DNA of 64,000 nt from an uncultured Gammaproteobacteria bacterium. Lineage in GTDB: Bacteria; Patescibacteriota; Patescibacteriia; Magasanikbacterales; JBBTQS01. A program made the translations under genes and the position numbers. Below are positions 6,833 through 23,106 of this stretch, in pieces. Positions within the stretch are counted from its first letter, which is position 1. Each line of letters opens with the position of its first letter. Location: NCBI GenBank assembly GCA_965230935.1, contig OZ246400.1:374359-438358 (forward strand), read 5' to 3'. Under the pieces are notes generated by a model. The model ran no database searches. It saw only the letters and a program-made list of their open reading frames with translations, and was not told the DNA's origin.

Positions 6833-7460
6833 TTACCTTAAACTCCTTAATGTCTTTGATATATTGATACTCTGGAACTACAACCGCCTTCTCATTTTCC
6901 TCTAGTCGGTACTGCTCGATCTGCAAGCCTGCATTACTCATTGCACTCTTAAAATCTTCATCTGTTTTAAATAAATCATGGACTATCACATAATCTTTTG
7001 AACCTAATCGCAGGGGCACCTCTGTATTGTGGAGCTCTGAATTTTCAGTGACAAAAGTGTTAAAACTACAAACCAAATAACCACCTTTTCGTAAAACCCT
7101 AAAAATTTCATTGAACGGTTTTTGCAAATCCTTACAATGTTGTATTACAAAGTTGGAAAAAACCAGATCGAAACTATTATCTTCATAAGGCATGTTTGCT
7201 ATATCACCAAGCACAAACCCTGCCCCACAATTCCTCTCTTGAGCACGATTAATCATCGGTTGACTAATATCAATCCCCTTTGCAGAACTCGCACCCTTTT
7301 CTAAAAACTTGCATGCATATCTACCATCACCACAACCAAGATCTAAAACATCTTTATTTTTTACGCCAATATCTCCTAAGAGCTCAAAAATCTTAACATC
7401 GGTGACGTTGTAATCATCACGTGATTCGAGATATTTATCTGTGAGTTCTTTGGAATACAT
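6810..7460 (-). CDS. class I SAM-dependent methyltransferase
   Basis: Motif I VLDLGCGDGRY, with a post-I acidic residue and the overall fold pattern. Confidence 0.75.
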   Translation of the reverse strand: MYSKELTDKYLESRDDYNVTDVKIFELLGDIGVKNKDVLDLGCGDGRYACKFLEKGASSAKGIDISQPMINRAQERNCGAGFVLGDIANMPYEDNSFDLVFSNFVIQHCKDLQKPFNEIFRVLRKGGYLVCSFNTFVTENSELHNTEVPLRLGSKDYVIVHDLFKTDEDFKSAMSNAGLQIEQYRLEENEKAVVVPEYQYIKDIKEFKVIVCVCKK

Positions 7461-7464
7461 GACA

Positions 7465-8157
7465 TCACTTGCTTACTACAACTAATTTTTGCCCTATAGT
7501 AAACTCCGGTTTATCTAACCGTTCTGACAAGAACTTTTCCATCTCTAGCATCTTCGCGTCATACACATTATCAGGAGCGATTATGAGCACACGGACAAAA
7601 TCTGCGAGCTCCTTAAAACTATTAGCGTGTATTGGAACAGAAAATGTAGAGACTGCATACTCCAAACCTTTTAATAAAGACTCATCAAAAACATCATACT
7701 GAATATCACCGATAGACTCTTTTGAAAAATTGATCAACTCTCCAACAAAATCATCATTAGAATTATAACAAAGCAAAACCCTTCCACCGTCTTTTGTGTT
7801 AGATAATGCCTTATTAAAAGCCTGTTTAGTTGTATTGGTATAAGCAAAATGACCCCAAACATGAGAAAGGAGCACTACGTCATACTGATCATCGATTGTA
7901 ACATCCTCCCACTTACCTTGAATAAATGTCAGACTGCCATCTGATTCGGTTTCATCAAAATCAACAAGTGTTATATGAAAATAATTCGGTTGAATTGCTT
8001 TGGTGATTACCCCCTTTGCGCAACCGATATCGAGTACCATGGTATCTGATGTTATATTTACTGTCTTCTTGATCTGTTCGACAATAGCGGACTCTTCTTT
8101 TGTTATATCTTTAAAGACTTCGAACTGTTGGAAGAATTTTTTGTAATCTTTATTCAT
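7465..8157 (-). CDS. class I SAM-dependent methyltransferase (second copy)
   Basis: Motif VLDIGCAKG. Start trimmed to MNKDYKK (ATG near 8157). The ORF-track extension would run through the att repeat. Confidence 0.65.
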   Translation of the reverse strand: MNKDYKKFFQQFEVFKDITKEESAIVEQIKKTVNITSDTMVLDIGCAKGVITKAIQPNYFHITLVDFDETESDGSLTFIQGKWEDVTIDDQYDVVLLSHVWGHFAYTNTTKQAFNKALSNTKDGGRVLLCYNSNDDFVGELINFSKESIGDIQYDVFDESLLKGLEYAVSTFSVPIHANSFKELADFVRVLIIAPDNVYDAKMLEMEKFLSERLDKPEFTIGQKLVVVSK

Positions 8158-8186
8158 ACAAAGATAGGTTATCAAAACAACAGTAG

Positions 8187-8260
8187 AAAAACCACCTCTC
8201 GGTGGCTTTCTCTCTTGTATAACTATACAAGTTTTGCGGACCGGACGGGACTCGAACCCG
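8187..8260. repeat. direct repeat copy B plus 27-bp duplicate of tRNA-Asp 3' end (att site of integrative element)
   Basis: 8187-8238 matches 6226-6278. 8234-8260 (ttgcggaccggacgggactcgaacccg) is identical to 21211-21237, the 3' end of the intact tRNA-Asp. Confidence 0.75.
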
Positions 8261-8465
8261 ACCACGTAGAAATATATATTCATCAGTAAATGCAGCCTAA
8301 AGCTGTAAATACCTAGTGAATACAGTGTTTTCTGCAATTCCCATTTGTCTCGCTTGGTCTTATCTTACCCCTCCTTTTCCCATCTCGTGGGCAGTATATG
8401 GGCAGTGCGTCTGGGGAGGGGTATCAATTGCAAGCTAGATTAAACACGCCCCCTACACCTGCTCA

Positions 8466-9464
8466 CTATTTCCCAATCCAATACCTTCCAAACACCTCAC
8501 CTCTAATCTTCCTCCCATTCCCATGCCGTAACATCCCAAGATAGGATTGCAAGGTTTCATTTTTTGGATGCTCAATGATACGTCGCAATGCTCTGCGTTT
8601 TGTCACCGTGCGCAGTGTACGGTGATCTGCAAACAATTTCCAACCAAGAAAATCCACACCAGATGATAAATTTTGAAGATGTATTTTGTTTGGATGCAAG
8701 CAGAGCTGTAGCTTGTCTTGGAGAAATGACTTAACTTTTAGTAGTTGTTCTTCAAGCTGTACTTTGCTGTGAGATAACAATACAAAATCGTCTGCATAGC
8801 GAATATAATACTTTGCCCTGAGTTTATGTTTTACCCACTGGTCAAACTGGTTCATGTAGATATTAGAAAAGAGTTGTGATGTTAGATTACCAAGTGGCAT
8901 ACCCTTTTGACTATTTTCGACTGAGAAACTTGAAATAACATTGTTAAGTAACCAAAGAATATCTGTGTCTGAAATGTATTGCTTAAAGACATTGAGGAGA
9001 ATATCATGATCCACGCTTGCAAAAAACTTACGAATATCGCACTTTAGCACCCAACAGTGTCTGGTATTGTTCTGGCTTACTGTGTACATCATGGCACGGA
9101 ATCTATCTCGTGCTTTTTGGGTTCCTTTGCCAATACGGCAAGAGTACGAGTCTGCGATGAACGTCCTGTCAAAGAATGGATAGAGCATGCGTACAATGGC
9201 ATGGTGTACTAGCCTATCTTGCACACTTGCTTTGTGGATGTGGCGTACTTTTGGATCAGTGATGATAAAGCTATGATAGCCACCATGTCTGTACGTCTTG
9301 TTTACAAGATAGTCATGAAGCGTTAGGATATGATCCATTAGGTTACGTTCAAAGTGTTGGACATCCTTTCTTTTGGATTTACCTACTCTAAACTCACGCC
9401 ATGCAGATAACAGGTTCTCTATGGCAATAATATCTTCAAATGTATGAGTCAATTGAATTTTCAT
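8466..9464 (-). CDS. diversity-generating retroelement reverse transcriptase
   Basis: RT domains including YADD (IRYADDFVLL). The DGR-specific motif-4 variant LGNLTSQ replaces the group II QG motif. It is short (~330 aa) with no maturase or endonuclease domain. Start is probably MKIQL at 9464. Confidence 0.85.
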   Translation of the reverse strand: MKIQLTHTFEDIIAIENLLSAWREFRVGKSKRKDVQHFERNLMDHILTLHDYLVNKTYRHGGYHSFIITDPKVRHIHKASVQDRLVHHAIVRMLYPFFDRTFIADSYSCRIGKGTQKARDRFRAMMYTVSQNNTRHCWVLKCDIRKFFASVDHDILLNVFKQYISDTDILWLLNNVISSFSVENSQKGMPLGNLTSQLFSNIYMNQFDQWVKHKLRAKYYIRYADDFVLLSHSKVQLEEQLLKVKSFLQDKLQLCLHPNKIHLQNLSSGVDFLGWKLFADHRTLRTVTKRRALRRIIEHPKNETLQSYLGMLRHGNGRKIRGEVFGRYWIGK

Positions 9465-9513
9465 AATACACACAAGTCTCCCCCCCCCCAACGCTCTTGA
9501 TGATCTACCAATA

Positions 9514-9834
9514 GTGGTTAAGCTCCAGACAAGCTATAAACACTGGCATGGGTTCTTGGTTCACCTTCCAAGACTCACGAGATACACACTTGGCGTGAAG
9601 ATAGATTCACTCTATACCGATTGCCTTGAGCTAGCACTAAGCGCGGGATATGCGCCAAAAGCAGAGAAGCTGCGCATTATTATGAAGCTAAATACCAAGG
9701 TGGACGCGTTAAAGTTTTTCTTAAGGGTGCTTTGGGATCTAAAAGGACTGGATAATAATAAGTATGTAGTGCTTTCCACACATCTGGCTGAAATAGGCAA
9801 AATGGTTGGCGGATGGATGAAATACCTCAAATAG
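9514..9834 (+). CDS. Avd-like four-helix-bundle accessory protein (23S IVS-protein family)
   Basis: 106 aa. The C-terminus LSTHLAEIGKMVGGWMKYL fits the four-helix-bundle/Avd pattern. Transcribed divergently from the RT. Confidence 0.55.
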   Translation: MVKLQTSYKHWHGFLVHLPRLTRYTLGVKIDSLYTDCLELALSAGYAPKAEKLRIIMKLNTKVDALKFFLRVLWDLKGLDNNKYVVLSTHLAEIGKMVGGWMKYLK

Positions 9835-9882
9835 CTAAACTCCTCCTAATTGCAGGAGTTTATGCATAAATAGACTTGCAGC

Positions 9883-9995
9883 GCGAGGAAGCGGTAGTTG
9901 CGATTCCAGTCGTTGTCGAAGTAGTTGACGTTCAGATCGCGGTTGTCACCGTTCCTGTTGAGCACCAGCACGTGGTGATTGCCGTTGAACACGGG
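9883..9995 (-). repeat. DGR template repeat (TR)
   Basis: 113 bp. Minus-sense translation PVFNGNHHVLVLNRNGDNRDLNVNYFDNDWNRNYRFLA is rich in AAC/AAT codons. All 22 mismatches to the VR fall at TR adenines. Confidence 0.85.
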
Positions 9996-10367
9996 TCACG
10001 CAGTCATGTTATGTATAGTGCCACCTGTGCCACCACCCATTGAATACTCTCTGGGTTGAATCGTATACGAAAGCAAATCTTTCACAGCACTATACACCAA
10101 GTATATTCATGGAAGCATGATGTCAACTCACGAGAGAACACCGTGGTCTTCTCTATTCTGGCGTACACACCGTGCTTAGTCTATAACCGCCCAGAGCCGT
10201 AGCCATGAACTGTTTCATTACAAACCAAGAAAATTGTAGCATAAAAAAACGAAACCCCACATGACGCTTCTTCCGTGTGGAAGTGAATCATGCAGGGTTT
10301 GTCGTGTTGTCCGCCAAGGAAACAAGGGCAAAATCCAAGTGGAAAGTGCCCAAGTGTCCAAGTGCCG

Positions 10368-11039
10368 CTACTTGCAGGCGAGGAAGCGGAAGTCGCGACT
10401 CCAGTCGTAGACGAAGTAGTCGACGCCCAGATCGCGGTCGCCACCGTCCCCGAGGAGCACCAGCACGCGGCGACAGCCGCTGAACACGGGCATCTGCTCG
10501 CTGAGGATGACGATCGGGAACTGACGCTGCAGCTCACCGTGCTGTGCGCCAAACGCCAGACCGTCCGCGATGGTGGGGCGCTTGAGCCCATGCTGGCGCA
10601 TGTACGCGAGCGCGTCCTTGCTGCTGGCGCGGCGGTCGAGGTGCACCAACACCAGCTCGCGCTCCTGACGGTCGGTCTTCTGGATCGGCCAGTGGTGCGC
10701 CTGCTTGTCCTTGACCAGATCGCTCGTCCAGTCGTAGTTACCCGCGTCGCGCAACATCTTGAAACGCTCCACGGGGTCGTCGGACACGGTGCAGTCCACG
10801 ATCGTACGGTAAACCTGTAGACCGAGGGGCTGAGGCGTGATGATCGTCTGCCCCGCCGTGGGCTGCTCACCACCGATGATGCTGCGCTGAGCCGCACGAA
10901 CGGCGTCGCCGAGCGCACTCTTGTCGGAGAGCAGGAGCTGTGCCTGCTCATAGGTGAGATCGGTGAGAGCGAACCCACCAAGGGTGAGAGCCAAATCCTT
11001 GGCCTGACCAGCTGTCATCTGTCGGACTGTCCCACTCAT
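10368..11039 (-). CDS. DGR target (variable) protein, C-terminal CLec-like VR region
   Basis: 223 aa, GC-rich, VR covers the last ~38 codons before the TAG stop at 10368-10370. No obvious signal peptide. Confidence 0.75.
   Translation of the reverse strand: MSGTVRQMTAGQAKDLALTLGGFALTDLTYEQAQLLLSDKSALGDAVRAAQRSIIGGEQPTAGQTIITPQPLGLQVYRTIVDCTVSDDPVERFKMLRDAGNYDWTSDLVKDKQAHHWPIQKTDRQERELVLVHLDRRASSKDALAYMRQHGLKRPTIADGLAFGAQHGELQRQFPIVILSEQMPVFSGCRRVLVLLGDGGDRDLGVDYFVYDWSRDFRFLACK
10378..10490 (-). repeat. DGR variable repeat (VR) at 3' end of target gene
   Basis: 113 bp aligning gap-free with the TR at 91/113 identity, every difference at a TR adenine. Encodes the target C-terminus ...PVFSGCRRVLVLLGDGGDRDLGVDYFVYDWSRDFRFLA. 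Confidence 0.85.
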
Positions 11040-11204
11040 GGGCTATTCCTCCAAAGGTAATAATTGGCTTTTCTATTTGTGCTTACCTAACCGTTAGGCG
11101 CACGAGACAATGCCAGTAAAGAACTTGTGAGAAAGCATAGCATAAATTAGCCATTTTGTCAATGGTTTTGCTAAAATAAAGTAATTTTTGTAAGCCCCCC
11201 ACTC

Positions 11205-11978
11205 TTACTCACTATTTGTATCTATAAGCTGAAGCCTGCAATCTGGGGTTTTAGTATCGCATTCATAACCTATACTTACTTCCAAGATTTCGCCACCTCT
11301 TCTTTGTGTTGATAGAAATGTTTCAAATTGAAACGTTTCTGCGTTTTGTAGGAGTTTGAGCCAATTTTTGTAGGTCGGCTTATTGCTTTCCGAGTAAGGT
11401 ATTGATACAAAAGGTATGTCTGACAAACTGTACAACAATGCCGTCGTACTAGTTGGTGGCACTGCTAAACTTTCGCTTCGCAACAAGTGACCATCTAAAG
11501 GTTGATATGAATAACCATTTACTTCTTTACTTAAAGAAATATAGATACTGTCCCATATTTTAAGTGGCTCTCCATAGTCAACTGAACTATTAACAAATAG
11601 GTATGCATTAGATATTTCCCCTTCGGTCTTGATGAATTTTTTAAACTCCCGACCATAAACTTGACCGTCATCATCCACCCAACTAGGAGTAGTTGTTACA
11701 AGCTCAAGTTTGGTTAGCTTTTTGAAAAAGTTAAAGTCTGGATACTTAGTTATAGACTCTTCGCTTGCTTTGTGGTCAATTTGCTTCTTTACCACCTCTT
11801 CAATTTCTGTTTCTGAAACTTGATTCAACCCTAAATCTTTCCTGAGCCAATCAATACCTAAGTCTACTAATTGAATTATGGTTACAGTTAGTGTCACGAC
11901 CACAATAAAAATTACTATTGGGTATATAATCTTTTTTAACTCGTTAGCCATCTTCTTCTCTTTATTTTTTTCAGACAT
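11205..11978 (-). CDS. hypothetical protein with N-terminal TM anchor
   Basis: 257 aa with one N-terminal hydrophobic helix, then a soluble domain. Confidence 0.45.
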   Translation of the reverse strand: MSEKNKEKKMANELKKIIYPIVIFIVVVTLTVTIIQLVDLGIDWLRKDLGLNQVSETEIEEVVKKQIDHKASEESITKYPDFNFFKKLTKLELVTTTPSWVDDDGQVYGREFKKFIKTEGEISNAYLFVNSSVDYGEPLKIWDSIYISLSKEVNGYSYQPLDGHLLRSESLAVPPTSTTALLYSLSDIPFVSIPYSESNKPTYKNWLKLLQNAETFQFETFLSTQRRGGEILEVSIGYECDTKTPDCRLQLIDTNSE

Positions 11979-11980
11979 AT

Positions 11981-12391
11981 CTACTTTTCATTTCGAAATT
12001 GTTTGTCTCCATACAACAGCAAATTCACAGACATCAATAACCAAAAACATTGTTTAGTTAATTTGTGGTTTAATTCAAATAGAGTTTGCCAACGTAATAC
12101 TTTGTTTGCTTTGATGGCGGAGAGTGAACCTACTACCATTATTAATAATAGAATTTTAAGCCCAACTGAATCGTCTTCGGTGATACGGGTGATCACTCTA
12201 TCTAAAAAACCACCCAAAAACAAGTTGAGTAGCACGAAGACGAGAACTAGATTTATGATTTGAAGTACAAAAGTCTTCTTTTTTATGAGAAAACTGTTAA
12301 AGAATGGTTTAAAATAAGACAAAAAAGAGGACATCATCTCCGTCCACAGTTCACCATGATTACTATATTTGTACCTGTTTTTAGGGTTCAT
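11981..12391 (-). CDS. small membrane protein
   Basis: 136 aa with 3 predicted TM helices. Tightly coupled to the downstream gene. Confidence 0.4.
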   Translation of the reverse strand: MNPKNRYKYSNHGELWTEMMSSFLSYFKPFFNSFLIKKKTFVLQIINLVLVFVLLNLFLGGFLDRVITRITEDDSVGLKILLLIMVVGSLSAIKANKVLRWQTLFELNHKLTKQCFWLLMSVNLLLYGDKQFRNEK

Positions 12392-12580
12392 TTTTCTTCC
12401 ACATCCTTTTTACCACATTTTTAATCTGATTTCCATAACATGAAGAATGGCTTAATTGAATTTTTAGATTTATATTCTATGTTTTTACACGCTTTCACTG
12501 ACGTATATTTTTAAGCCAGTAATCGAAAAGGATTGCTGATATTTTCTCAGCAATCTCGTTTTGTGTATCATCATCCATAC

Positions 12581-13714
12581 TTAATGGTTTGTACTCTTAA
12601 ATACTTCAAAAGAATCTAGCTTAGTAAAATCAATCTCAAAAGTACTGTCTTCATTCTTGTAAAGCACAACACTATCAAGTCCAATTTCTTGCAATTTATC
12701 ATAAGTAACGAGTTCCCCCTCTTTTAATCTCAAAATATCACGGAGTATCCACGTACCAAGTTTAATGTTCGGATTGCTCATAAGGGCTTTTGACCCATCC
12801 TGACAAACCTTCGCGCTAATGGTCTCACCATTTGGCAATTTAAGATCAAATGGTTCATCCCTTGGAGGGAAAAATTTAGGGAACTTCTTGTGAATCCATT
12901 TAGGTATTGGAATATACACTTCGTTTGCGTGGCGAGCACGTCCGCCAGCATTCCACTGATTAAGTCCGCTCTTAGTAGGTACTTCGCCCTGTGTTCGCGT
13001 AGAGTAAAGAGGGAGGAAGACGTGCGTCTGTTTTTTGATTGGAGCAAAATGCAGTGTTTCTCTAACTTCTAGAAACATTTTTTCTAATTCATCAAATGGG
13101 TCATCAAGTATTCTCGTGCTTAGTTCTAGTATATGTGGTGGTGTGATAAATCTCTTAAAGAGAGTACTCTTAGTCAGGTTAAGTGTGTATTCGTTTTTGG
13201 CGTCTCTAAAGTAGATTGTGTTCCCATTTTTGCTTGGTGAAATTCCACCAATCTTATCAATGTTGATCGTATCCATTTCAGTTTCATACACAAAAATCCT
13301 TCTAGGAGCTCGCGTCACGCAGTGGTAGATCATTGAGTCTAGCCCATGGATCGTTTTTGTAGCTTCAATTCGTCTGTTTCTCATCTCTGCCACTCGTAAC
13401 ACCTTGCTTTCAATATCTAGATCTCGAAATGTCTTCGCTTCCTTGTTGAACTCAGCAACTTTTTGTAGTGAGGCGCTATTTTTCTCTAGAAATGTTTTTA
13501 TACCAATACCAACGTTGTCTTTTGAGGCATCGGCAGAAACATCTGAACGGGAAAGGTTCTTGGCATCAAACGATCTACAGAAAAGATTTTCAGCAATTCG
13601 ATATTGGATGTACGGCTCCTCACCATCAGAGAATAGACGAGAAAGAGAACCGATGGTTGTCAGCATCGTCTGGTAGTACTGGAGTGACTTTTTTGTTTGG
13701 CTTTCAAGGAACAT
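12581..13714 (-). CDS. type II restriction endonuclease candidate
   Basis: Start ATG at 13712-13714, directly 3' of the MTase TAG (tagtATG). Size and position fit the cognate REase of the adjacent m5C MTase. No named motif recognised. Confidence 0.5.
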   Translation of the reverse strand: MFLESQTKKSLQYYQTMLTTIGSLSRLFSDGEEPYIQYRIAENLFCRSFDAKNLSRSDVSADASKDNVGIGIKTFLEKNSASLQKVAEFNKEAKTFRDLDIESKVLRVAEMRNRRIEATKTIHGLDSMIYHCVTRAPRRIFVYETEMDTINIDKIGGISPSKNGNTIYFRDAKNEYTLNLTKSTLFKRFITPPHILELSTRILDDPFDELEKMFLEVRETLHFAPIKKQTHVFLPLYSTRTQGEVPTKSGLNQWNAGGRARHANEVYIPIPKWIHKKFPKFFPPRDEPFDLKLPNGETISAKVCQDGSKALMSNPNIKLGTWILRDILRLKEGELVTYDKLQEIGLDSVVLYKNEDSTFEIDFTKLDSFEVFKSTNH

Positions 13715-13715
13715 A

Positions 13716-14681
13716 CTATGCCTGTAAAGCCTTAAAGATATTTTTCGCGATTCTTCTAATGACTGGAACAGAGACAGAGTTACCGAACTGCTTGTACAAG
13801 GCAGAGTCAGGAAGGTCATCTGGTAGCTTGATGTTGAAGAAGCCCTGTATTCTTGCACATTCAAGAGGGGTTAGTTTTCGTATACCCTTCTTGTCTTTGA
13901 CAATCGGTACATTATGACCACCCATTCCCATGTTTGCAGTAAGTGTTGGGCAGACACTTTTTTTGTTTTCTCTCACATATTTGCGCCTCCATTGATAGAC
14001 CGTGTCAGTGGAAGTAACATGATTTTTTAATTTTTTGAACAATGGTTTGCCATTGTAGTAGTACTTTTCATCAACCTCTTTTTCGAGTAGTTGTTTGAAA
14101 TTCTTTGATAGTGGGATCTTTCTTGGGAATACAAAATGTTCGAATGCTTTTTTATTTTTAAAGCCTACTATATATATGCGTTCCCTGTTTTGTGGAAGGT
14201 TTCCATGTAGCATGGTGTTGAGTACCGCTTCTGTGACGTGATATCCCTCACCTTCTAGAGATTGCTTTATGGTTTTGTAAGTCCTGCCACCATCATGCCC
14301 TTTGAGATTTTTAACATTTTCAAGAAATACAAAGTTTGGTTTTTTCTCTGAAACTATATCCATAATTCTGAAGAAAAGATTTCCTCTGCCTTTCTTGTCC
14401 TTGAATCCCTTTCTATACCCGGCAACTGAAAATGGCTGACATGGGAAGCCACCCAACAAGCCGTCAAATTTTTTTGGTAATTGTGTTAACTCAACTTCAT
14501 TAATGTCTTTGATCACTAATTTAGGGTCGGAAAAATTGAGATCATAAGTAGTTTTGCAGTGACGTTCATAATCATTAGCAAAAAGTGTGGTGAAACCCTC
14601 TTGCTCAAAACCCAGTCGTATTCCACCAACACCAGCAAAAAGATCAATAGTGGTGTAGCCTCTATTTTTAGATTTGTACAT
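13716..14681 (-). CDS. DNA (cytosine-5)-methyltransferase
   Basis: Motif I DLFAGVGG, motif IV GFPCQPFS, motif VI ENVKNL, motif X QFGNSVSVPV. Confidence 0.9.
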   Translation of the reverse strand: MYKSKNRGYTTIDLFAGVGGIRLGFEQEGFTTLFANDYERHCKTTYDLNFSDPKLVIKDINEVELTQLPKKFDGLLGGFPCQPFSVAGYRKGFKDKKGRGNLFFRIMDIVSEKKPNFVFLENVKNLKGHDGGRTYKTIKQSLEGEGYHVTEAVLNTMLHGNLPQNRERIYIVGFKNKKAFEHFVFPRKIPLSKNFKQLLEKEVDEKYYYNGKPLFKKLKNHVTSTDTVYQWRRKYVRENKKSVCPTLTANMGMGGHNVPIVKDKKGIRKLTPLECARIQGFFNIKLPDDLPDSALYKQFGNSVSVPVIRRIAKNIFKALQA

Positions 14682-14944
14682 AAAAAGACGACTTATCTTT
14701 TGATAAGCCGCCGAGAAGCCTCTCTAGAGTGGACGACCCGACGGGTCTACACACTCACAGAACGCAAAGCGCCTGATCGTGTACCGCGAGTCGCCCGCTG
14801 TAATTCACGATCAGGAACCAGTGCATTCTGGCTCTTAACGTTTCTGTAAGTGTGTAGACAAAGCCATCTTAGCAAATGTATTAAGTAATGGGAATAGGGG
14901 TTGATTTTTCTTTGATTTTTAGTAATCTTTAGGAAAGAATAAAT

Positions 14945-16132
14945 ATGAACATAAATAAACTAGGCTCAGAAGAGTTATTTCTCTACAAATTTTTTATATT
15001 GCAAGATCCAGAATTCTTTGAGCAAGAATTCACTCTTGTGGATTTGGCAAAAAATTCCAACCTGAGTTTCAAAATTGTTTTCCGTACTCTATTGAAGATG
15101 GTTAAATCTGGTCATGTCAGTTTTCTGAAGTGTTATTTGCAGGAAAGTTACATAGACAAGCATCTCAAGAAGAAGGAAGCACTTATAGAAAAAGAAAATC
15201 GAAAATCTGTGGCGAGCATGTCTGGTGGTTTTCTTGTGCAAGAGACAAAACAAAGAACATCAAAAGAAGATAAGTATTGTGGTTTGCCAAAAGACCATTA
15301 TGATAAGCTTCAGAAAGATGGAGTGCTCCATTTGGGTCTAAGTGACGACGAGGTTATGAGTAATTTGGAGGGAGTTTCAGAAGATCTGGTCCTCCAGAGT
15401 CTTATTTTTAAGATTAAGATTAATGAAGGATTGCTTGATTTTATGAAGAGGTATTCCTTTGCAATCATCAACGATGAATTCGCGGATGGACGGAAACTCA
15501 GTTATCTCGCTCAAAAGAAAGGTCTTGCTACCGAGATAGGCACCCAAATACACATGGGATTCCCGTTGAAGGGGGTACGACTTAATTCAACGGATGTGCT
15601 ATTTGGAAAAAAGAATAATCCTTTACAATCCCCGCCATTTTTTAGTTTTTTGCATACGTTGGTAGGTATGGAGGCTGAGGGGTTGATAACTATTCGAAGG
15701 ATAGAATATCCTCAACCACTCAGGGTCCCAGTTGTTATCACATCTGAATTAAAAGATTGGCACCCATTGCATGTTTTACTATCTGCAGACCCTAAGAAAT
15801 TTGTAAAATATTACAATGAGGAGGTTGTCCAGAAAGATGATGTCTCAACCCCGCTTTTTAGATTCGTGGATGGTGTTTTCTTTAGGGATGGTGAATCTTG
15901 TGTTCTAAAATTTAATGAAAAAACTCTTGAATACAATGTGCTTGCCGTGGCGTTTAATAAGGAGTTTGGTGAGAAAATAGACATGGCGGTACGGGGCATA
16001 GATGCCTCCAGCTGGAAGCAGTTGCGTGATACTGTAGATAGACTAAATAAAAAGATCGCGCCAAGCTTTGGTATTGGAGATTTCTTTGAGATTATACACT
16101 CAGATAAACATTTTTACAGAAGAGTACACTGA
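14945..16132 (+). CDS. hypothetical protein (395 aa), element cargo
   Basis: Intact ORF with N-terminal HTH-like segment. Function unknown; could be a replication or regulatory protein. Confidence 0.45.
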   Translation: MNINKLGSEELFLYKFFILQDPEFFEQEFTLVDLAKNSNLSFKIVFRTLLKMVKSGHVSFLKCYLQESYIDKHLKKKEALIEKENRKSVASMSGGFLVQETKQRTSKEDKYCGLPKDHYDKLQKDGVLHLGLSDDEVMSNLEGVSEDLVLQSLIFKIKINEGLLDFMKRYSFAIINDEFADGRKLSYLAQKKGLATEIGTQIHMGFPLKGVRLNSTDVLFGKKNNPLQSPPFFSFLHTLVGMEAEGLITIRRIEYPQPLRVPVVITSELKDWHPLHVLLSADPKKFVKYYNEEVVQKDDVSTPLFRFVDGVFFRDGESCVLKFNEKTLEYNVLAVAFNKEFGEKIDMAVRGIDASSWKQLRDTVDRLNKKIAPSFGIGDFFEIIHSDKHFYRRVH

Positions 16133-16224
16133 TGAGTGATTTCACTCACCGGTGACTCACGCTAAATAGGTTAAGCTCACGCTGTGGGCTTTTTTGATTT
16201 AAAAAACAATTAACAAATCTAATT

Positions 16225-16497
16225 ATGAAACGAAATATCAATTACAAATATTTGGAAGATAGAGAAAATTACTTTTCGACCTATGATCTGGGATGTGTGT
16301 CTTCCCTAGTTAGTGTTGGGCACAGGATTTTTCACACAGAGAAAGTTGGGGGGACCAGTCGTGTTTTGTTTGTCTTTGAAATGACTGATGAGATTCTGAT
16401 GGATTCACAAAAATATTGGTCGGGAGAGCTTGAGGTGGATGCTCAGACGTACTTTAACACCCTAAAGAATTTAAAGAGCAGAATCTATTCCACATAA
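16225..16497 (+). CDS. hypothetical protein (90 aa)
   Basis: Co-directional small ORF in the element. Confidence 0.3.
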   Translation: MKRNINYKYLEDRENYFSTYDLGCVSSLVSVGHRIFHTEKVGGTSRVLFVFEMTDEILMDSQKYWSGELEVDAQTYFNTLKNLKSRIYST

Positions 16498-16600
16498 ATA
16501 ATGCTCACTGACGAAATGGTCGAGGAGTACCGCGAGCTGTACCGCAAACAATACATAGACCGATCCTAAAAAGGGAAATAACTAACCAATAAAAATTATT

Positions 16601-16825
16601 ATGAAATCACTTGAACGACGATTCCAACGAATCCTAAAAAAACAAACTGGCTGGAGTACCTACCTTTGCTTTGCTAATGCCGTAAAGGGACAGTGCTTCC
16701 GCAAACGCACAATACAGTACTGGTTCAGCAAACTTGTCGAACCAAAAGACTACAGCCTCGGTGACAAAAAACAGATTGTTAACTTCTTGCACCACATCTC
16801 AAATGAGCGTGAGGACGGCACATAA
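16601..16825 (+). CDS. hypothetical protein (74 aa)
   Basis: Co-directional small ORF in the element. Confidence 0.3.
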   Translation: MKSLERRFQRILKKQTGWSTYLCFANAVKGQCFRKRTIQYWFSKLVEPKDYSLGDKKQIVNFLHHISNEREDGT

Positions 16826-16906
16826 TGAGGGCTATTTTGCCCGCTCCGTTCTTGTTTAAGCCGCAGGTACACCAAGTGCCATAAACCTAAAAATTACTTA
16901 ATTAGT

Positions 16907-19099
16907 ATGAGTTCCAGAACAATGAACATTACCCAATATCTCACTGAAAAAGACATTGAATTCACAACAGCGAATGGTGAGCTAGTCACAAAATGCCTAT
17001 TCAATGGCTGTGATGATGACAGCAGACCAAATGAGCGCCATCTTTATTTTGATGCTGAAACCAGCCAATACGACTGCAAAAAGTGTGGACAGCAAGGCAA
17101 CCTAATTACTCTTGCTAGACACTTTGGAGACACACTCAGCAACAAACAACCATCACAAAAAAAGACCGTTAAAAAACGGAGAAAAAACGCTAGTATCACC
17201 ATTGAACAGGTGGAGCAGTGCTATGACGCATTACCTGAGAATATCAGACAATATCTACACAATCGTGGGATCAATGACGACCTTATCAATCACTTCAAAA
17301 TTGGCTGGGGTGAATTCTACAATAAGTACTGGATAACCATCCCCATCAAGAACAAGGATGGAGATTTTGTATTCTTCAAATTACGTCGTGACCCCCAATC
17401 AGAGCAGGGCAATAAATACCAATTTTACCCCACAGGTAGCGAGTCAACACTTTTTGGATGGGATATGTTCAAGGGCAACCAAGATATGGTAATGATCTGC
17501 GAGGGAGAATTTGATGCAATGCTACTGCAAAGCATCGGTATCCCTGCAATCACGTCTACAGCAGGTGTGGGAACGTTCAAACAAGATTGGATTACCAGCC
17601 TCAAAAAATTAAGAAAGATATATATTTGCTTTGATACTGACGATGCAGGAATAAAAGGAGCAGAAACCCTAATCAAAAAACTCGACCAAGAACTGGGCAA
17701 TAGAACAACAATCTACAAAACCTCCCTGCCAGAACGCATGAAAAAAGGTAAGGACGTAACTGATTACATCACAAAGTACAATGGCAACCCAGACGAACTT
17801 ACAAAAGAATGTTCTACCTATGCTGGCGGACGTAAGCCCATTGATACCAGTAAATTCAAACCACTTACATCTGATGATGTCGTGCGTGTACTTGGTCTTA
17901 CTATTAAAAAAGACGAGGAAAATAAATTGATCACGTTCCTTTGCGCTCTCTCTGCGTATACAGAACAATCCCAATTTAACCTTAGCTTCAACGCACCATC
18001 ATCGACTGGAAAAAGTTTTATTCCAATGGAAGTATCTACTCTTTTTCCCGCTGAGGACGTTATGAAACTTGGTGACTGCTCACCTAAAGCTTTTTTTCAT
18101 GAGCAAGGTGAATATGACAAAGAGACCAATACCATGCTTGTTGACCTATCAAGAAAGATACTTATTTTCCTTGACCAACCACACAACAGCCTCCTTGAAC
18201 GTCTCCGTTCCCTATTGTCACACGACCAAAAGGAAATGATCTCCAAGATCACTGATAAGAATCAGCGAGGCGGTAACAGAACCAAGACTGTTATCCTACG
18301 CGGCTATCCAGCCGTCATCTTCTGTAGTGCAGGTCTTAAAATTGACGAGCAAGAAAGCACACGTTTTATCCTGCTCTCACCACAAACCAACCAAGAAAAA
18401 CTGCGTTTTGCAATACAAGAAAAGATTAAGAAAGAATCAGATTATGACGCATATAGAGATAGCCTAAACGCAAATCCAGAACGTGCCTTACTGAAGGAAC
18501 AAATTGAAGCAATTAGAGACGAAAACATTGATGAAATACGCATTGAAAATCCAGAGATCATTGAGCAAGAATTCTTCTCCAAAAGGGATAAGCTCAAGCC
18601 ACGTCATCAACGTGATATTGGCAGACTTATGGGGCTAACCAAGATTTTTGCACTGCTCAATGTGTGGTTTCGTGAACGAGATGGATCAACCATTGTGGCA
18701 ACTCAAAAAGATTTTGAAGAAGCACTTAAGCTCTGGAATAAAATCTCTGAAAGCCAAGAATACAACCTACCCCCTTACGTTTATGAACTGTACAAGGATG
18801 TAATCATACCCGCTTTTGATGAAAAGAATGCAGACCGCCTACCTGCTGCTGAGCCTATTGGAGTCACAAGAAAGGAAATACTACAAAAGCACTACGAGGT
18901 GTACGGAAGAATGGTACAAGACTGGCAACTACGACAGCAGATCATCCCCATGCTTGAAACCGCAGGGCTGTTGTCACAAGACCCCGACCCAGATGATAAG
19001 CGAAGAATACTCATTACTCCTACAGATAAACTCGCAAAAATAGATATGGTGAGTGACACTGGGGAGCTAGAGTTTCCACCAGAAATAACAGGTGATTAA
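16907..19099 (+). CDS. DNA primase / P-loop NTPase (primase-helicase) of mobile element
   Basis: N-terminal Cys4 zinc finger (CLFNGC...CKKCG). Toprim motifs (MICEGEFDAM...ICFDTDDAG). Downstream Walker A NAPSSTGKSF. Confidence 0.75.
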   Translation: MSSRTMNITQYLTEKDIEFTTANGELVTKCLFNGCDDDSRPNERHLYFDAETSQYDCKKCGQQGNLITLARHFGDTLSNKQPSQKKTVKKRRKNASITIEQVEQCYDALPENIRQYLHNRGINDDLINHFKIGWGEFYNKYWITIPIKNKDGDFVFFKLRRDPQSEQGNKYQFYPTGSESTLFGWDMFKGNQDMVMICEGEFDAMLLQSIGIPAITSTAGVGTFKQDWITSLKKLRKIYICFDTDDAGIKGAETLIKKLDQELGNRTTIYKTSLPERMKKGKDVTDYITKYNGNPDELTKECSTYAGGRKPIDTSKFKPLTSDDVVRVLGLTIKKDEENKLITFLCALSAYTEQSQFNLSFNAPSSTGKSFIPMEVSTLFPAEDVMKLGDCSPKAFFHEQGEYDKETNTMLVDLSRKILIFLDQPHNSLLERLRSLLSHDQKEMISKITDKNQRGGNRTKTVILRGYPAVIFCSAGLKIDEQESTRFILLSPQTNQEKLRFAIQEKIKKESDYDAYRDSLNANPERALLKEQIEAIRDENIDEIRIENPEIIEQEFFSKRDKLKPRHQRDIGRLMGLTKIFALLNVWFRERDGSTIVATQKDFEEALKLWNKISESQEYNLPPYVYELYKDVIIPAFDEKNADRLPAAEPIGVTRKEILQKHYEVYGRMVQDWQLRQQIIPMLETAGLLSQDPDPDDKRRILITPTDKLAKIDMVSDTGELEFPPEITGD

Positions 19100-19122
19100 C
19101 TGGAGCATACTAAAAAATCATC

Positions 19123-19794
19123 TTGATAAAAAATCAAAATTCTCTAATGATTTCGGCATCCAGAAATATGGCACGCTATTACTACAACAAAAAAGAAGAG
19201 GCTGACGACCTGAGAAAAATTGAGATATGGACGCTCAAAAAATGGGGGTATTTAGGAACATCTCGATCTGGAACCATCACATGGACTCACGGTTTTAGCG
19301 GCAAGAAGAATAGTGTAGGCATACAAACGATATTCTGGAGTAGCAACCCACAACTACGCATACACTACACACAAACTGATTGGCAGACAGATGAGAAAAA
19401 AGACTTTGACTATCAAATTCCGTTAGTCACTACACCTTGCAACTTGGGCGGAAAACGATACTGGTTTCAATGTCCTTGGTATAAAAATGGTGTGTACTGT
19501 GGAAAGCGTGTTGGTGTGATCTACAAAGGTGGAGACTATTTCGCCTGTAGACATTGCTACGACCTGAGTTATGCAAGCAAGAATGTAAACAGACACTACA
19601 GATTATTTGCGTATGGTCAGATGCTTGATCTGGAAGAGAAAATCAGAAAACTAGAGGACGAAGTAACAACTCAATACTACAACGGACGTCCTACCCGTAA
19701 GTACAGACGACTATTGGAGCTAAAGAGAAGATATTACGGCTTTGATATTGATGCTGTTCTTGAAAATATGGAAAAACTACTTAAAAACACGTAA
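19123..19794 (+). CDS. hypothetical protein with Cys-rich zinc-ribbon-like segment
   Basis: CPWYKNGVYCGKR...CRHCYDLSY. Confidence 0.45.
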   Translation: MIKNQNSLMISASRNMARYYYNKKEEADDLRKIEIWTLKKWGYLGTSRSGTITWTHGFSGKKNSVGIQTIFWSSNPQLRIHYTQTDWQTDEKKDFDYQIPLVTTPCNLGGKRYWFQCPWYKNGVYCGKRVGVIYKGGDYFACRHCYDLSYASKNVNRHYRLFAYGQMLDLEEKIRKLEDEVTTQYYNGRPTRKYRRLLELKRRYYGFDIDAVLENMEKLLKNT

Positions 19795-19853
19795 AATGAG
19801 TAGTGCCTACGAGATTATATCTCACAGACGCACTGCTCTATACAACTAAATCA

Positions 19854-20078
19854 ATGTCAAAAGAGTCGACACAATTGATGACCGTAAAAGACGTCTGTGA
19901 ATTCCTAAGAATTTCCAAATCAGCAGTCTACAGACTAACTGATCGCCGTGAAGTTCCCTTCTATAGGATTCGCAGTGGCTTGAGATTCAAGAAGTCAGAT
20001 CTACTTTCCTACTTGGAAAATTGTCGACTTGAGGCAATAAATGAACATGAATATGGCAGTGCGAATAATAGATCGTAA
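19854..20078 (+). CDS. excisionase/AlpA-like HTH DNA-binding protein
   Basis: MTVKDVCEFLRISKSAVYRLTDRREVPFYRIRSGLRFKKSDLLSYLE is the MerR-type excisionase helix-turn-helix. Sits immediately upstream of the integrase. Confidence 0.6.
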   Translation: MSKESTQLMTVKDVCEFLRISKSAVYRLTDRREVPFYRIRSGLRFKKSDLLSYLENCRLEAINEHEYGSANNRS

Positions 20079-21177
20079 ATGGTACGTGGACATAAGAGAT
20101 AACATCGGCAAACGCCATCGTCTTAAAAGCCCTGAGAATAGCAAGAAAGGAGCATTGGCGTACGAGAGACTACTCTTGGGTCGGATCAGTCGTAATGAAC
20201 CACTCAGAGGCGTAGAGGATCAAAAATCTCCCTTGTTCAAGGATTTTGCACAGCAATGGCTTAAGAGCTACGTAGCATCAAACAATAAGCCTAGTGTGCA
20301 AACCACCAAACGAGAGATTATCGGAAACCACCTCACACCTTTCTTCGGGGCAAGGCACATAGACCAGATAACAGGTTGGATGATCGAGCAGTTCAAGACT
20401 AAAAAGCAGTCAGAAGGACTCGCACCAAAAACAGTGAACAATATACTCACTGTATTGCGAACATGCTTAAATCACGCACATGAATGGGAGCTGATTGAGA
20501 AACCAATAAAGATCAAACCAGTAAAGTGCCCAGAACCTAAGACAAAATACCTTAGTCGAGATGAGCTTTCATTACTCCTCTCAGACACAGAAGCTGGTAT
20601 GTGGAATGACATGATCCTGATTGCCACTCATACAGGAATGCGTTTTGGCGAACTCTGTGGTCTTCATTGGGAAGATGTGGAGCTAGACACCAAAACGATA
20701 TATGTAAGGCGTGCGCTAGTTAGAAAACTCCTCACGACACCCAAGAGTGGTAAGAAAAGAGCGATCCCAATGAGTGATGCCGTGGTGAAACGACTCAAGC
20801 AGATGCGGCGACAAGGAAAGTTTGTCTTTATGCGAGAAGATGGACGGGAGATCACCAAAGGAATGGGATTGCCAGAACTGCATAAAATCTGCGATAGGGT
20901 CGGTATTCAGCGAGTTGGCTGGCATACACTCAGACACACCTTCGCTACAATGCTAGTAGAGGGCGGAGAAAGCCTCAGAGTGATTCAAAAGCTTCTAGGT
21001 CACTCTACAATCCGCATGACAGAGCGATACTCTCACGTGCCAGATTCTTCACTTACCAAGGCTGTTCAGAAACTTGATTCAATCCAATTTGGAGAAAGTT
21101 TGGGCAGTATATGGGCAGTGGATTTTCTGCGAGAAACAGAAACAAAAATACCAGTAGGCACAAAAGCCTATAAATAA
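20041..21177 (+). CDS. tyrosine site-specific integrase
   Basis: C-terminal catalytic signature HTLRHTFATMLVEGGESLRVIQKLLGHSTIRMTERYSHV. Adjacent to a tRNA. Confidence 0.9.
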   Translation: MNMNMAVRIIDRKWYVDIRDNIGKRHRLKSPENSKKGALAYERLLLGRISRNEPLRGVEDQKSPLFKDFAQQWLKSYVASNNKPSVQTTKREIIGNHLTPFFGARHIDQITGWMIEQFKTKKQSEGLAPKTVNNILTVLRTCLNHAHEWELIEKPIKIKPVKCPEPKTKYLSRDELSLLLSDTEAGMWNDMILIATHTGMRFGELCGLHWEDVELDTKTIYVRRALVRKLLTTPKSGKKRAIPMSDAVVKRLKQMRRQGKFVFMREDGREITKGMGLPELHKICDRVGIQRVGWHTLRHTFATMLVEGGESLRVIQKLLGHSTIRMTERYSHVPDSSLTKAVQKLDSIQFGESLGSIWAVDFLRETETKIPVGTKAYK

Positions 21178-21213
21178 AAGAAAAAACTCCTCTCGGAGTT
21201 AAATCTTTCCTTG

Positions 21214-21287
21214 CGGACCGGACGGGACTCGAACCCGCGACCTCCGCCGTGACAGGGCGGCATTCTAACCAGCTGAACTACCGGTCC
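21214..21287 (-). tRNA. tRNA-Asp (anticodon GTC)
   Basis: Manual fold: acceptor GGACCGG/CCGGTCC, D-arm, anticodon stem CCGCC/GGCGG with loop CTGTCAC, T-arm GCGGG-TTCGAGT-CCCGT. CCA is not encoded. Confidence 0.9.
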
Positions 21288-21298: not shown

Positions 21299-21326
21299 GA
21301 CAAGGAAATACTTGTATTTCCTTGTC
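21299..21326. repeat. perfect 12-bp-stem palindrome
   Basis: gacaaggaaata-cttg-tatttccttgtc immediately 5' of the tRNA-Asp gene. Confidence 0.4.
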
Positions 21327-21588
21327 CGAACGGAGCGGGCCGGTCTCCTGAATCCAGCTTTGTTGGATGAAGGTAGACAGGTCCGAATGATCATACTATC
21401 TCACTAGCGTCAATACTATATACTAAACCCTTTTTCTTGTCTAGACATGTATATCCCCAAAATCAAAAGAGTCCGTATCTGCTTGATCACCGTTCGGTGA
21501 GCTGATACGAACTCTAATGGTTGTTGTGTTGTTATGTTTGTGCGATCGGCCAGCTTACGCTAGCCGCTGAGGTCGTCGCCCGCGACGA

Positions 21589-22761
21589 TCAGTCGCAGAC
21601 GTCCCCGGCGCCGTCGCCGTCCGCGTCCGCCTGGTTGGGGTTGGGGACGCTCGGGCAGTTGTCCAACGCGTCGGGAACCCCATCGGCATCGGCATCCGCC
21701 TCGCACATGTCCCACACCTGGCAGCTGAAGCCGGCGGCGCACGTGCCGCAGCTCCCGCCGCAGCCATCGCCGCCGCACTCGAAGCCATCGCAGTCCGGAG
21801 TGCAGTCCTCGACGCAGGCGCCCGAAGCGCAGACGCTCTCGGCACCGGCCGAGTCCAGGCACGGGCTCCCATCGAGCGCGTCGGTGTTCACGCACTCGTC
21901 CGCGTCCTCGTCGCACTTGTCGATCGTGGTGCACGCCTCGCCGTCGTCACAGGTCTTCACCGTGCCCGAGCAGGCGCCGTTGCTGCACGCGTCGCCGCTG
22001 GTGCAGAACAGGCCGTCGTCACACGGGTCGCTGTTGTTGACGGTGAGGCAGTCGCCGTTGGCGCTGGTGCCGTCGCAACTGTTCGTGGTGCACAGGTTCC
22101 CGTCGTCGCAGTCCTTGTCCGTGCTCACGCACTCGCCGCTCACGCACGCGTCCACGGTGCACACGTTCCCGTCGTCGCAGTTGTTCTCGTCGAACGGCGC
22201 GTTGACGCACCCGACGGCCGGGTCGCAGCTGTCGTTGGTACACGGGTTCCCATCGTCGCAGTCCGGCGCCGCGCCGCCCACGCACACGCCATCGGCGCAC
22301 GCGTCGGCCGTGGTACAGGCATCTCCGTCGCTACACGCGTCGCCGGTCTCCAGGATGTGCCCACAGGTCAGGGAGTTGCCGCAGAAGTCGGACGTGCAGG
22401 AATTCCCGTCGTCGCAGGCCTCGTTGGTCTGGCACGTGACGTCGCCGGAGCTGCAGTCGCTGAACTTGACGTACGCGCAGTTACCGGTCCCATCCCCGCT
22501 CGGGTTCATGACGCACTTGGCGCCCACGGCCTCGCCGGCGGGCACGCAGCTGTCGTTCTCCGCGAGCGACACGCACTCGGTGTCCGCGACGCAGGCGTCG
22601 AGGCCGGCGTGCAGCGTGCTGAAGCCCGAAGGCGCCTTCGGTCGCGGCGCTTCGACGCTGATGAGCGACTCCTCGCTCTCGCCGTTGGCGCAGCCAGTGA
22701 TGAAACAACAGAGGAGAAGATAGGCCAGGGTGGCCACGGTCATCGAGATCTTCGTACGCAT
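21589..22761 (-). CDS. Cys-rich secreted lipoprotein with CDDGNxCTxDxC repeats and C-terminal thrombospondin-type-3 Ca-binding repeat, GC-rich
   Basis: Lipobox [10 protein letters not shown]. More than 10 repeats of CDDGN.CT.D.C. C-terminus [33 protein letters not shown]. About 65% GC. Start taken at MRTKISM. Confidence 0.6.
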
Positions 22762-23013
22762 GGAAAAGAGCTCCTTCTTGCGCTCGAGCCCCCCAACTAT
22801 GTGTCGAGAGGGTGTCTTCAAGGGAAACGTATGGCCACCCCGCGGCAGCCCACGAGGTAGTGGTCCTCAACATCATGTCAAAGAACACCCGCTGCCAGAC
22901 CAGAAGCCTGCAAGCGAGCGGAACCGTAGTAATAACCCAAACCAGGCCTACTACGAGAACATCATACCCTAGCATTTTGGTAAAATTATGTCAAGTTTAG
23001 ATTAAAAAATAAA

Positions 23014-23087
23014 CCACCAGTGTATTTTGAGACTTACTTCACAATTGCTCGAAGCAATTGTGCGTAAATCGAAGAATACACTGGTGG
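23014..23087. terminator. nested long hairpin downstream of dinB
   Basis: Outer 13-bp stem ccaccagtgtatt/aatacactggtgg enclosing inner palindrome caattgc-tcgaa-gcaattg. Confidence 0.4.
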
Positions 23088-23106
23088 CAAAATTTTTAAC
23101 CTAAAT

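Follow-up and report, generated by a model that had tools for sequence, protein, structure and literature searches.

We describe a 12,950-bp integrative element in a 64,000-nucleotide stretch of DNA (hereafter the window) from an uncultured bacterium of the Patescibacteriota lineage (Magasanikbacterales; NCBI GenBank assembly GCA_965230935.1, contig OZ246400.1, positions 374,359 to 438,358 of the forward strand). The element is probably a replicative, non-conjugative, and non-viral unit that was put into the 3' end of a tRNA-Asp gene by a tyrosine integrase of the lambda type. A partial-tRNA repeat, a convergent integrase, an excisionase (Xis), a foreign composition, and a geometry that recurs across the integrase family carry this reading; they bear out the tRNA-integrated island that a first-pass annotation had proposed from the letters of the DNA and a list of its open reading frames (ORFs). 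To that proposal, our analysis adds an architecture of the attachment (att) sites defined across the family, evidence that its diversity-generating retroelement (DGR) is transferable as a module, and signs that insertion at tRNA-Asp happened more than once. The element is of an ordinary, known kind, though its recombination sites can be read with unusual ease, and current understanding is not overturned.

Boundaries of the element and its tRNA target

The element is bounded by two exact copies of a 27-mer, TTGCGGACCGGACGGGACTCGAACCCG, both on the + strand. This repeat was part of the initial annotation, and on re-inspection it is exact and occurs twice only in the window; no third copy appears there even when three mismatches are allowed. 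The chance expectation for a 27-bp repeat is 0 (100 shuffles), and identity stops sharply at both sides of the 27-mer. Between the copies lie 12,950 bp (8261-21210). The right copy consists of the last 25 nt of a tRNA-Asp gene and 2 nt downstream, because ARAGORN places that gene at 21213-21287. The tRNA is intact, as had been claimed, and matches its Rfam model over the full length. The integrase gene (int) and the tRNA gene are convergent, with 36 bp from the int stop to the tRNA 3' end. The features at the boundaries are as follows.

8234-8260, + strand: distal att core, a 27-bp partial tRNA-Asp 3' end; exact repeat of 21211-21237
21211-21237, + strand: proximal att core, second copy of the repeat; contig L003, from another sample, is 100% identical from int through att and the complete tRNA
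21213-21287, - strand: tRNA-Asp(GTC), the integration target (ARAGORN; Rfam RF00005, 68.6 bits)
21185-21200, no strand assigned: terminator-like hairpin that separates the att core from the int stop (terminator scan); a like layout is seen in contig L001 and in two older att-like modules

The window is part of ENA contig k127_33187 (PRJEB17505), and a 931-kb NCBI contig carries the same proteins. Further contigs were looked up in public assemblies by the exact integrase, IF-3, two methyltransferases, LexA, the DGR reverse transcriptase (RT), and the DGR target. The distal junction is covered at 100% identity by L008 and L009, from two runs (blastn), and L298, from a third run, agrees with it in gene layout; the proximal junction, including the whole tRNA, is covered at 100% by L003. 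These junction-spanning contigs come from different runs and assemblers and therefore effectively exclude an assembly chimera. All the other PRJEB17505 contigs compared by blastn (L002-L010) are 100% identical pieces of the integrated state, and those recovered later (L012, L013, L094, and L298) have gene layouts that match it. Other contigs break at GC-rich genes, at the template and variable repeats (TR and VR) of the DGR, or near att; these breaks are uninformative.

The composition of the element is foreign to its surroundings. Its GC content is 41.4% (39.9% without the DGR target), versus 45.2-49.9% in every 13-kb host window, and its tetranucleotide distance from the host is 0.27, versus 0.07-0.17 for host windows.

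Integrase, excisionase, and the architecture of the att sites

Recombination would be carried out by an integrase encoded next to the tRNA and an excisionase encoded beside the integrase, acting on cores and on putative arm-type sites at both ends of the element.

20041-21177, + strand: predicted heterobivalent tyrosine integrase (Int), likely start 20053 (Phage_integrase PF00589, E=4e-33; SAM-like domain)
19803-20078, + strand: predicted excisionase or recombination directionality factor (RDF) of the AlpA/Xis type (HTH_17, PF12728, E=4.5e-15; PHROG excisionase)
8366-8423, + strand: putative distal (P'-type) arm module, a ~10-bp inverted repeat (ACCCCTCC... / ...GGGGAGGGGT) around the GGGCAGTATATGGGCAGTG pair; matched pair
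21102-21120, + strand: putative proximal (P-type) arm-type repeat pair GGGCAGTATATGGGCAGTG in the int frame, encoding LGSIWAV; identical to the distal copy

The R..H..R..Y motifs noted at first hold up: residues R201, K235, H295, R298, H321, and Y330 are invariant in a 16-sequence family alignment. In an AlphaFold 2 (AF2) model, the N-terminus of the integrase folds into a three-stranded sheet and a helix (pLDDT 84-89), and its C-terminal tail is disordered (pLDDT <50 over residues 349-378). Full-length lambda Int aligns over 356 columns, versus ~280 for the lambda construct without the arm-binding domain. The excisionase is of the AlpA type, as annotated; the companion statement that it abuts the tRNA does not stand, since it abuts the integrase instead, and the 3' end of xis overlaps the start of int.

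The putative arm sites are new here, on both sides of the element, and go beyond the first-pass annotation. The 19-mer GGGCAGTATATGGGCAGTG is identical at 8389-8407 and 21102-21120, and its spacing pattern, GGGCA-N6-GGGCA, occurs at only these two sites in 64 kb when both strands are checked. The distal copy lies 128 bp inside the distal core, and the proximal copy 109 bp before the proximal core. These matched pairs are as expected for arm-type sites of a heterobivalent integrase, an assignment that draws on the DNA pattern and on the modeled N-terminal domain. Integrases of this class bind arm-type sites in addition to the core, and in KplE1 the att region of IntS overlaps the int promoter (PMC2951348).

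What is conserved in these sites is the DNA. GGGCA-N6-GGGCA is present at the int 3' end in 29 of 81 relatives, and it falls in codon phase 0 (21 cases, FGQxxGN), phase 2 (5 cases, LGSIWAV), and phase 1 (3 cases, FWAxxGQ), and once past the stop. Because the motif occupies all three codon phases and once follows the stop, conservation acts on DNA and not on peptide. Retention as an encoded peptide is ruled out by the three phases, the post-stop case, the disordered tail, and the non-coding twin at the other arm. We also rejected the distal arm region as a duplicated int 3' end: tblastn gives E=0.28, and the DNA match does not extend beyond the 20-bp motif.

The geometry recurs across the family. 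Nine elements could be delimited (the one in the window and those in L015, L017, L018, L020, L025, L032, L048, and L055). In all nine, 115-138 bp separate the distal pair from its core and 83-131 bp the proximal pair from its own, and the distal pair matches the proximal pair better than any control window does. The type of motif varies by element (GGGCA, GGGAAC, GGCCACA, or TGGAnACA). The distal pair sits inside an 8-14-bp inverted repeat, different in sequence in each of the nine, with z-scores of -0.7 to -4.0 across elements. As a side observation, a site for Xis, a cruciform, and an RNA structure are options for this enclosing inverted repeat.

A recurring backbone with changing targets

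A 263-bp intergenic region divides the element into two divergently transcribed arms: the + arm serves integration and replication as the backbone, and the - arm is cargo. Upstream of xis and int, the backbone comprises the following.

14682-14944, no strand assigned: divergent intergenic region, candidate operator or origin, with an 18-nt inverted repeat
14945-16132, + strand: 395-aa protein, first gene of the backbone operon; no family match in four libraries
16225-16497, + strand: DUF5659 (PF18903, E=6e-8)
16601-16825, + strand: 74-aa ORF, kept beside Xis-Int in relatives
16907-19099, + strand: predicted replication protein of 730 aa; zinc finger, Toprim primase of the DnaG type, Walker A domain at the C-terminus (Toprim_2, E=4.5e-12; PHROG DNA primase, E=3e-31)
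19123-19794, + strand: Cys-rich 223-aa backbone protein; no family match, homologues at the same position in L027 and L020

The arms of the intergenic repeat (14745-14762 and 14842-14859) are 18 nt long, 94% complementary, and 79 nt apart; situated between the restriction-modification (RM) and cargo arm and the replication and integration arm, this repeat is a candidate operator or origin. The replication protein agrees with the Toprim/zinc-finger primase with P-loop that was first annotated: besides the Toprim_2 match, the zinc-finger motif CxxxC...CxxC and the Walker A motif APSSTGKS are present. Primase homologues, 54% identical, occupy the same position in L027 and L022, and DUF5659 and the 74-aa ORF also adjoin Xis-Int in L017, L027, L032, L037, L038, L051, L078, and L082.

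A scan of one genome per GTDB species yielded 80 relatives of the integrase (35-68% identity), many in Patescibacteria and many in Myxococcota. Most have a Xis homologue directly upstream of int. In 44, int converges with a tRNA or tmRNA gene no more than ~300 bp from its stop, and more than 12 kinds of tRNA are used in this manner. When the first 30 of these 44 loci were tested, 8 had an exact 23-46-bp copy of the tRNA 3' end 7.3-10.4 kb upstream; in the remaining tested loci, the element is probably longer than the 10-kb flank or cut off by the end of the contig. L027, at a tRNA-Val, shares DUF5659, the 74-aa ORF, the primase, the 223-aa ORF, Xis, and Int with the window, and L022, at a tRNA-Met, shares the primase, Xis, and Int. 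Because the backbone recurs in L027 and L022, the element belongs to a family in which the backbone for integration and replication is conserved and the tRNA targets and cargo change. Separately, the Myxococcota relatives of the integrase in L061, L065, L069, L076, L081, L083, L084, and L088 (~38-41% identity) lie consistently beside tmRNA.

Cargo: a restriction system and a diversity-generating retroelement

The cargo arm carries a predicted RM system, two membrane proteins, and a complete DGR.

13716-14681, - strand: Dcm-type 5-methylcytosine (m5C) DNA methyltransferase (PF00145, E=1e-82; TIGR00675, E=1e-89; PADLOC MTase_II, E=1e-113)
12581-13714, - strand: type II restriction endonuclease (REase), 377 aa; B3-like DNA-binding domain of the NgoFVII type at the C-terminus (PF20731, E=1.5e-13)
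11205-12391, - strand: two cargo ORFs, one of 257 aa with an N-terminal transmembrane anchor and one of 136 aa with several transmembrane segments; no match in Pfam, PHROGs, NCBIfam, or PADLOC
10368-11039, - strand: DGR target gene, 223 aa, ~55-58% GC; VR 10378-10490 at the C-terminus
9883-9995, - strand: DGR template repeat TR, a 113-nt repeat with 83% identity to VR, nearly identical to the TR of L095
9514-9834, + strand: DGR accessory protein bAvd, on the strand opposite the RT (PF22296, E=3e-11)
8466-9491, - strand: DGR RT, likely start 9464 (332 aa; RVT_1, E=6e-27)

The methyltransferase and the REase would form an adjacent type II RM pair, in keeping with the first annotation of a Dcm-type enzyme beside a putative REase; the REase matches PADLOC model REase_II PDLC03479 over its full length (E=4.8e-105). 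The stop of the methyltransferase gene had been described as overlapping the REase start. The genes are adjacent and do not overlap: the junction reads TAG-T-ATG, with a 1-nt gap.

All parts of the DGR (RT, bAvd, TR, and VR) are present, consistent with its inclusion in the initial list of cargo. Over ~113 nt, every substitution between TR and VR is at a TR adenine. The order target, TR, reversed avd, and RT corresponds to architecture B3, which reportedly accounts for 90% of the DGRs of the candidate phyla radiation (CPR) and is found almost nowhere else (Wu et al. 2018, PMC5758913). The target protein lacks a signal peptide and has nine homologues in 5.8 billion proteins; in its AF2 model (pLDDT 72), the C-terminal domain weakly matches C-type lectin folds.

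The cassette also exists in another context. The segment 8468-11200 is 85.6% identical in nucleotides to two sponge-metagenome contigs, L095 (79-2802) and L096 (16-2739), one of which is binned as Zetaproteobacteria (GCA_028817975.1). The similarity ends at the cassette limits, and neither att nor Int is visible on these short contigs; the 257-aa and 136-aa membrane ORFs fall outside the module shared with L095. The RT protein is 88% identical to that of L095 (tblastx) and 56% identical to that of L001 (tblastn). In the two homologous cassettes, each VR tracks its own TR at non-A differences, and the VRs differ at adenine positions. Because the VR substitutions at adenines differ while each VR follows its own TR, mutagenic homing has been active since the cassette copies diverged. 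The DGR is of the standard CPR type (B3) and, judged by these comparisons, is a self-contained, transferable 2.7-kb module. L095 has a further 59-bp similarity to window positions 6159-6217 (E=5e-4); this similarity, at a GC-rich hairpin, is too weak to interpret.

Surroundings and possible traces of older insertions

The DNA left of position 8234 is not plain chromosome; it resembles the integrase-proximal end of an older, decayed element.

8187-8233, + strand: terminator hairpin and palindrome, adjoining the distal att on its left; resembles the int-side end of an older element now decayed
6226-6291, + strand: older att-end-like module of terminator hairpin, 17-bp palindrome, and tRNA-3'-like fragment TTGCGGGAGCGATGGGAC; repeats 8187-8251
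6292-8233: segment Y, 37% GC, ~1.96 kb, with NUDIX and two S-adenosylmethionine (SAM) methyltransferases
4938-6225: segment Z, 58% GC in a 47% GC genome, ending at the first att-like module

The stretches 6226-6291 and 8187-8251 form an imperfect 65-bp direct repeat in which the hairpin is identical at 23 of 23 positions. Both modules have the layout seen next to int in the element and in L001: an A-run, a hairpin, a spacer, and T(T/G)GCGG-N5-RYGGGWC. The window holds three tRNA-3'-like fragments only, all on the + strand, and these delimit the compositionally distinct segments Z and Y and the 13-kb element. Segment Z has two ORFs without relatives, one of 120 aa with a signal-peptide-like N-terminus and one of 208 aa. 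The remnants at 6226-6291 and 8187-8233 suggest repeated insertions at tRNA-Asp, as in the additive-island model in which successive tycheposons enter one tRNA while older ones decay and move away (bioRxiv 10.1101/2020.12.28.424599). No Int or Xis pseudogene was found in segments Y and Z. One result does not fit this suggestion: the acceptor of the fragment at 6274-6291 (GGGAGCG) cannot pair with that of tRNA-Asp (GGACCGG), while the adjacent hairpin is perfectly kept.

The closest relative, L001 (9739-12608; JGI 3300009481; Int 68% and RT 56% identical), lies downstream of infC-rpmI-rplT, as in the window. Its order is Xis, Int, terminator, a degenerate tRNA-like TGGCGGTGTAGATGGGTC, RT on the - strand, and Avd on the + strand. 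Relative to the window's element, this order is circularly permuted, which points to either a tandem array or a fossil, locked-in attP.

On the 5' side of tRNA-Asp, within 21300-22900, an ORF at 21589-22821 (- strand, 64% GC) encodes a Cys-rich repeat lipoprotein with DCDDGNxC units and matches to Dicty_CTDC and TSP_3; other short-read assemblies break there. Long ORFs on both strands of 21300-22900 result from the GC content. The sequence looks Myxococcota-like, and the Myxococcota are also rich in integrase relatives. The DNA between the Cys-rich gene and dinB holds an inverted repeat (22982-23037 and 23064-23119) whose 56-nt arms are 73% complementary; dinB and lexA (23107-25110) adjoin the tRNA-Asp locus.

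A model of the element and its alternatives

In the mechanism we propose, the attP of the circular form would consist of the int 3' end with two GGGCAGT repeats, the 27-bp core ~110 bp on, and a second repeat pair ~130 bp past the core, held within the inverted repeat. The core-binding and catalytic domains of the integrase would act on the core, with the N-terminal three-stranded domain bridging to the arm sites. On recombination with the tRNA gene, an intact tRNA would be restored, with a partial copy of 27 bp remaining at the opposite end. Excision would be directed by the HTH_17 Xis, the translation of which would be coupled to that of int. The predicted junction sequences are ...CTTGTATAACTATACAAGTTTTGCGGACCGGACGGGACTCGAACCCGCGACCTCCGCCGTGACAGG for attB and ...CTCCTCTCGGAGTTAAATCTTTCCTTGCGGACCGGACGGGACTCGAACCCGACCACGTAGAAATATATATTC for attP. 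The excised circle may then be replicated by the primase/Walker-A protein with the small backbone genes, and the divergent half would travel as cargo: the type II m5C RM pair, the two membrane proteins, and the B3 DGR, which would rewrite the C-terminal 37 codons of the 223-aa protein. Since virion and conjugation genes are absent, transfer from cell to cell would need other means; a helper phage, vesicles, and uptake of DNA are examples. We infer present-day mobility (excision, replication, and transfer) from genes that are intact and from cores and arm pairs that match perfectly.

Several results weigh against this account. The first-pass annotation had proposed a search for an empty tRNA-Asp site or an attP junction, and neither these nor a circular contig was found among the PRJEB17505 contigs recovered; the exact attB junction pattern has no match in the JGI metagenomes. 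The tRNA-Asp 3' 36-mer is present at at least 120 loci, none of them syntenic with DinB, LexA, RplT, or the methyltransferases. Five ORFs have no family match in libraries including Pfam, PHROGs, NCBIfam, and PADLOC, and the C-terminal half of the primase protein has no profile match. Finally, the inverted repeat around the window's own distal arm site is not significant alone (z = -1.3).

A broader reading goes beyond the single element: that it is one of a large undescribed family of small, self-replicating integrative elements, distributed in Patescibacteria and some other phyla, that target tRNA and tmRNA genes and, in the manner of tycheposons, shuttle DGRs and defence systems from one ultra-small symbiotic bacterium to another, possibly as phage satellites. 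We advance this tentatively and consider it doubtful.

A fixed, immobile island is an unlikely reading: an old integration would be inherited vertically, with Int and Xis kept by chance or for another role. The integrated state is the only one in every assembly of three runs, and segments Y and Z illustrate that elements at this site decay in place. However, the two ends agree at every position of the 27-bp cores and of the 19-bp arm pairs; the ORFs of Int, Xis, and the primase are full-length, with catalytic residues conserved; and the composition has not drifted toward that of the host.

We give a still slimmer chance to a P4-like satellite or one related to the phage-inducible chromosomal islands (PICIs). 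It would stay silent at the tRNA until a helper phage of this bacterium induced it; its own primase would then replicate it, and helper capsids would package it, with RM and DGR as accessory genes. The set of int, AlpA-type xis, and primase/NTPase module in 13 kb at a tRNA site, with no structural genes, fits such a satellite, related integrases occur in 22-40 kb proviruses of IMG/VR, and the five ORFs without a family match leave some room. In addition, PICI-like tycheposons share backbones with cargo-carrying ones (bioRxiv 10.1101/2020.12.28.424599). Yet searches of Pfam, PHROGs, and NCBIfam gave no terS, capsid, sid/psu/delta-like, or interference gene, IMG/VR has no relatives of the primase, and no helper phage is known. 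A viral origin was rejected on similar grounds: besides the primase result, the IMG/VR relatives of the integrase are distant (35-41% identical) and lie in those larger proviruses. A prophage was also rejected: Pfam, PHROGs, and NCBIfam show no capsid, terminase, portal, or tail match among the element ORFs, and a tailed phage would not fit into 13 kb.

It is very improbable that the element is an integrative and mobilizable element (IME) or an integrated plasmid moved by a conjugative helper. Integration, replication, and cargo modules are also typical of IMEs and of the integrative and conjugative elements of actinomycetes (AICEs; background in PMC2440964); however, no relaxase, coupling protein, FtsK/Tra-like translocase, or type IV secretion system (T4SS) was found among ORFs of at least 70 aa, and by this gene content an integrative and conjugative element (ICE) or IME was rejected. 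The chance of an assembly chimera or a fortuitous repeat, with 13 kb misjoined at a repeated tRNA fragment, is negligible: short-read contigs of other runs do break near the att sites and the TR/VR repeat, but independent contigs span both junctions (L008 and L009 distally, L003 proximally, with the L298 layout in agreement), and the expectation for the repeat is zero.

Implications for gene exchange and genetic tools

Patescibacteria have tiny genomes, and to our knowledge few routes of gene exchange have been recognized for them. A compact element that integrates, probably replicates, and brings along a restriction system and a complete DGR shows how defence genes and cassettes for hypervariable proteins can move among these bacteria. 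Judging from the three nested att-like remnants, tRNA-Asp may be a landing pad that is used again and again, so that an additive island grows there, as in Prochlorococcus.

The family-wide definition of cores and arms provides concrete parts (Int, Xis, and attP) for integration vectors. If the reading of an undescribed family were true, its attP would be distinctive, with one pair in the integrase frame and the other inside a conserved hairpin, and att and Int would be usable directly as an integration tool for genetically intractable hosts.

Comparison with known systems

The cargo has counterparts in described systems. The predicted RM pair is like NgoFVII-like type II systems, in which an m5C methyltransferase lies beside a REase with the NgoFVII C-terminal B3-like DNA-binding domain. 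The DGR is like CPR-type B3 DGRs (PMC5758913) in gene order, adenine-specific TR/VR differences, and the position of VR at the target C-terminus; it differs from them in its very small target family, a target with no signal peptide and a weak C-type-lectin-like match, and in being the cargo of an integrative element, with a cassette also found in an unrelated context at 85.6% nucleotide identity. DGRs already ride integrative elements in Legionella and in Bacteroides. Like those DGR-bearing ICEs, the present element would be a site-specifically integrating carrier of DGR cargo that spreads horizontally; the known carriers are large and conjugative, whereas this element is 13 kb, with no transfer genes found.

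P4-like satellites and PICIs combine int, an AlpA/Xis helix-turn-helix protein, a primase-NTPase, a size of 10-15 kb, a tRNA att site, and defence genes, all of which are common to the element. In contrast to them, no packaging or capsid-remodelling gene was detected here, and no helper is known.

The integration module is like those of lambda and KplE1 IntS. Domains of N-terminal arm-binding type, core-binding, and catalytic function occur together with an RDF, direct-repeat arm-type sites flank a short core, and the att region overlaps the int gene. The differences concern the putative arm sites: here the P-side pair lies in the coding 3' end of int, in any reading frame, and the P'-side pair lies between an inverted repeat of variable sequence. 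In addition, no IHF or Fis site was identified in the element.

Functionally, the closest systems appear to be cargo-carrying tycheposons and the P4/PICI-type backbone, a likeness drawn from their descriptions. The tycheposons of Prochlorococcus combine a tyrosine recombinase and an excisionase with a 2-4 kb primase/helicase module and kilobases of cargo (bioRxiv 10.1101/2020.12.28.424599). Like the present element, they sit in the 3' ends of tRNA or tmRNA genes with a partial tRNA at their flanks, and they carry a replication module and cargo with no capsid or conjugation genes. Compared by published description, the element in the window differs in its host phylum and in its cargo, which is a DGR and an RM system rather than genes for nutrient acquisition. 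Tycheposons form tandem arrays in which degenerate remnants are pushed away from the tRNA, and the three att-like modules of the window suggest the same arrangement at tRNA-Asp.

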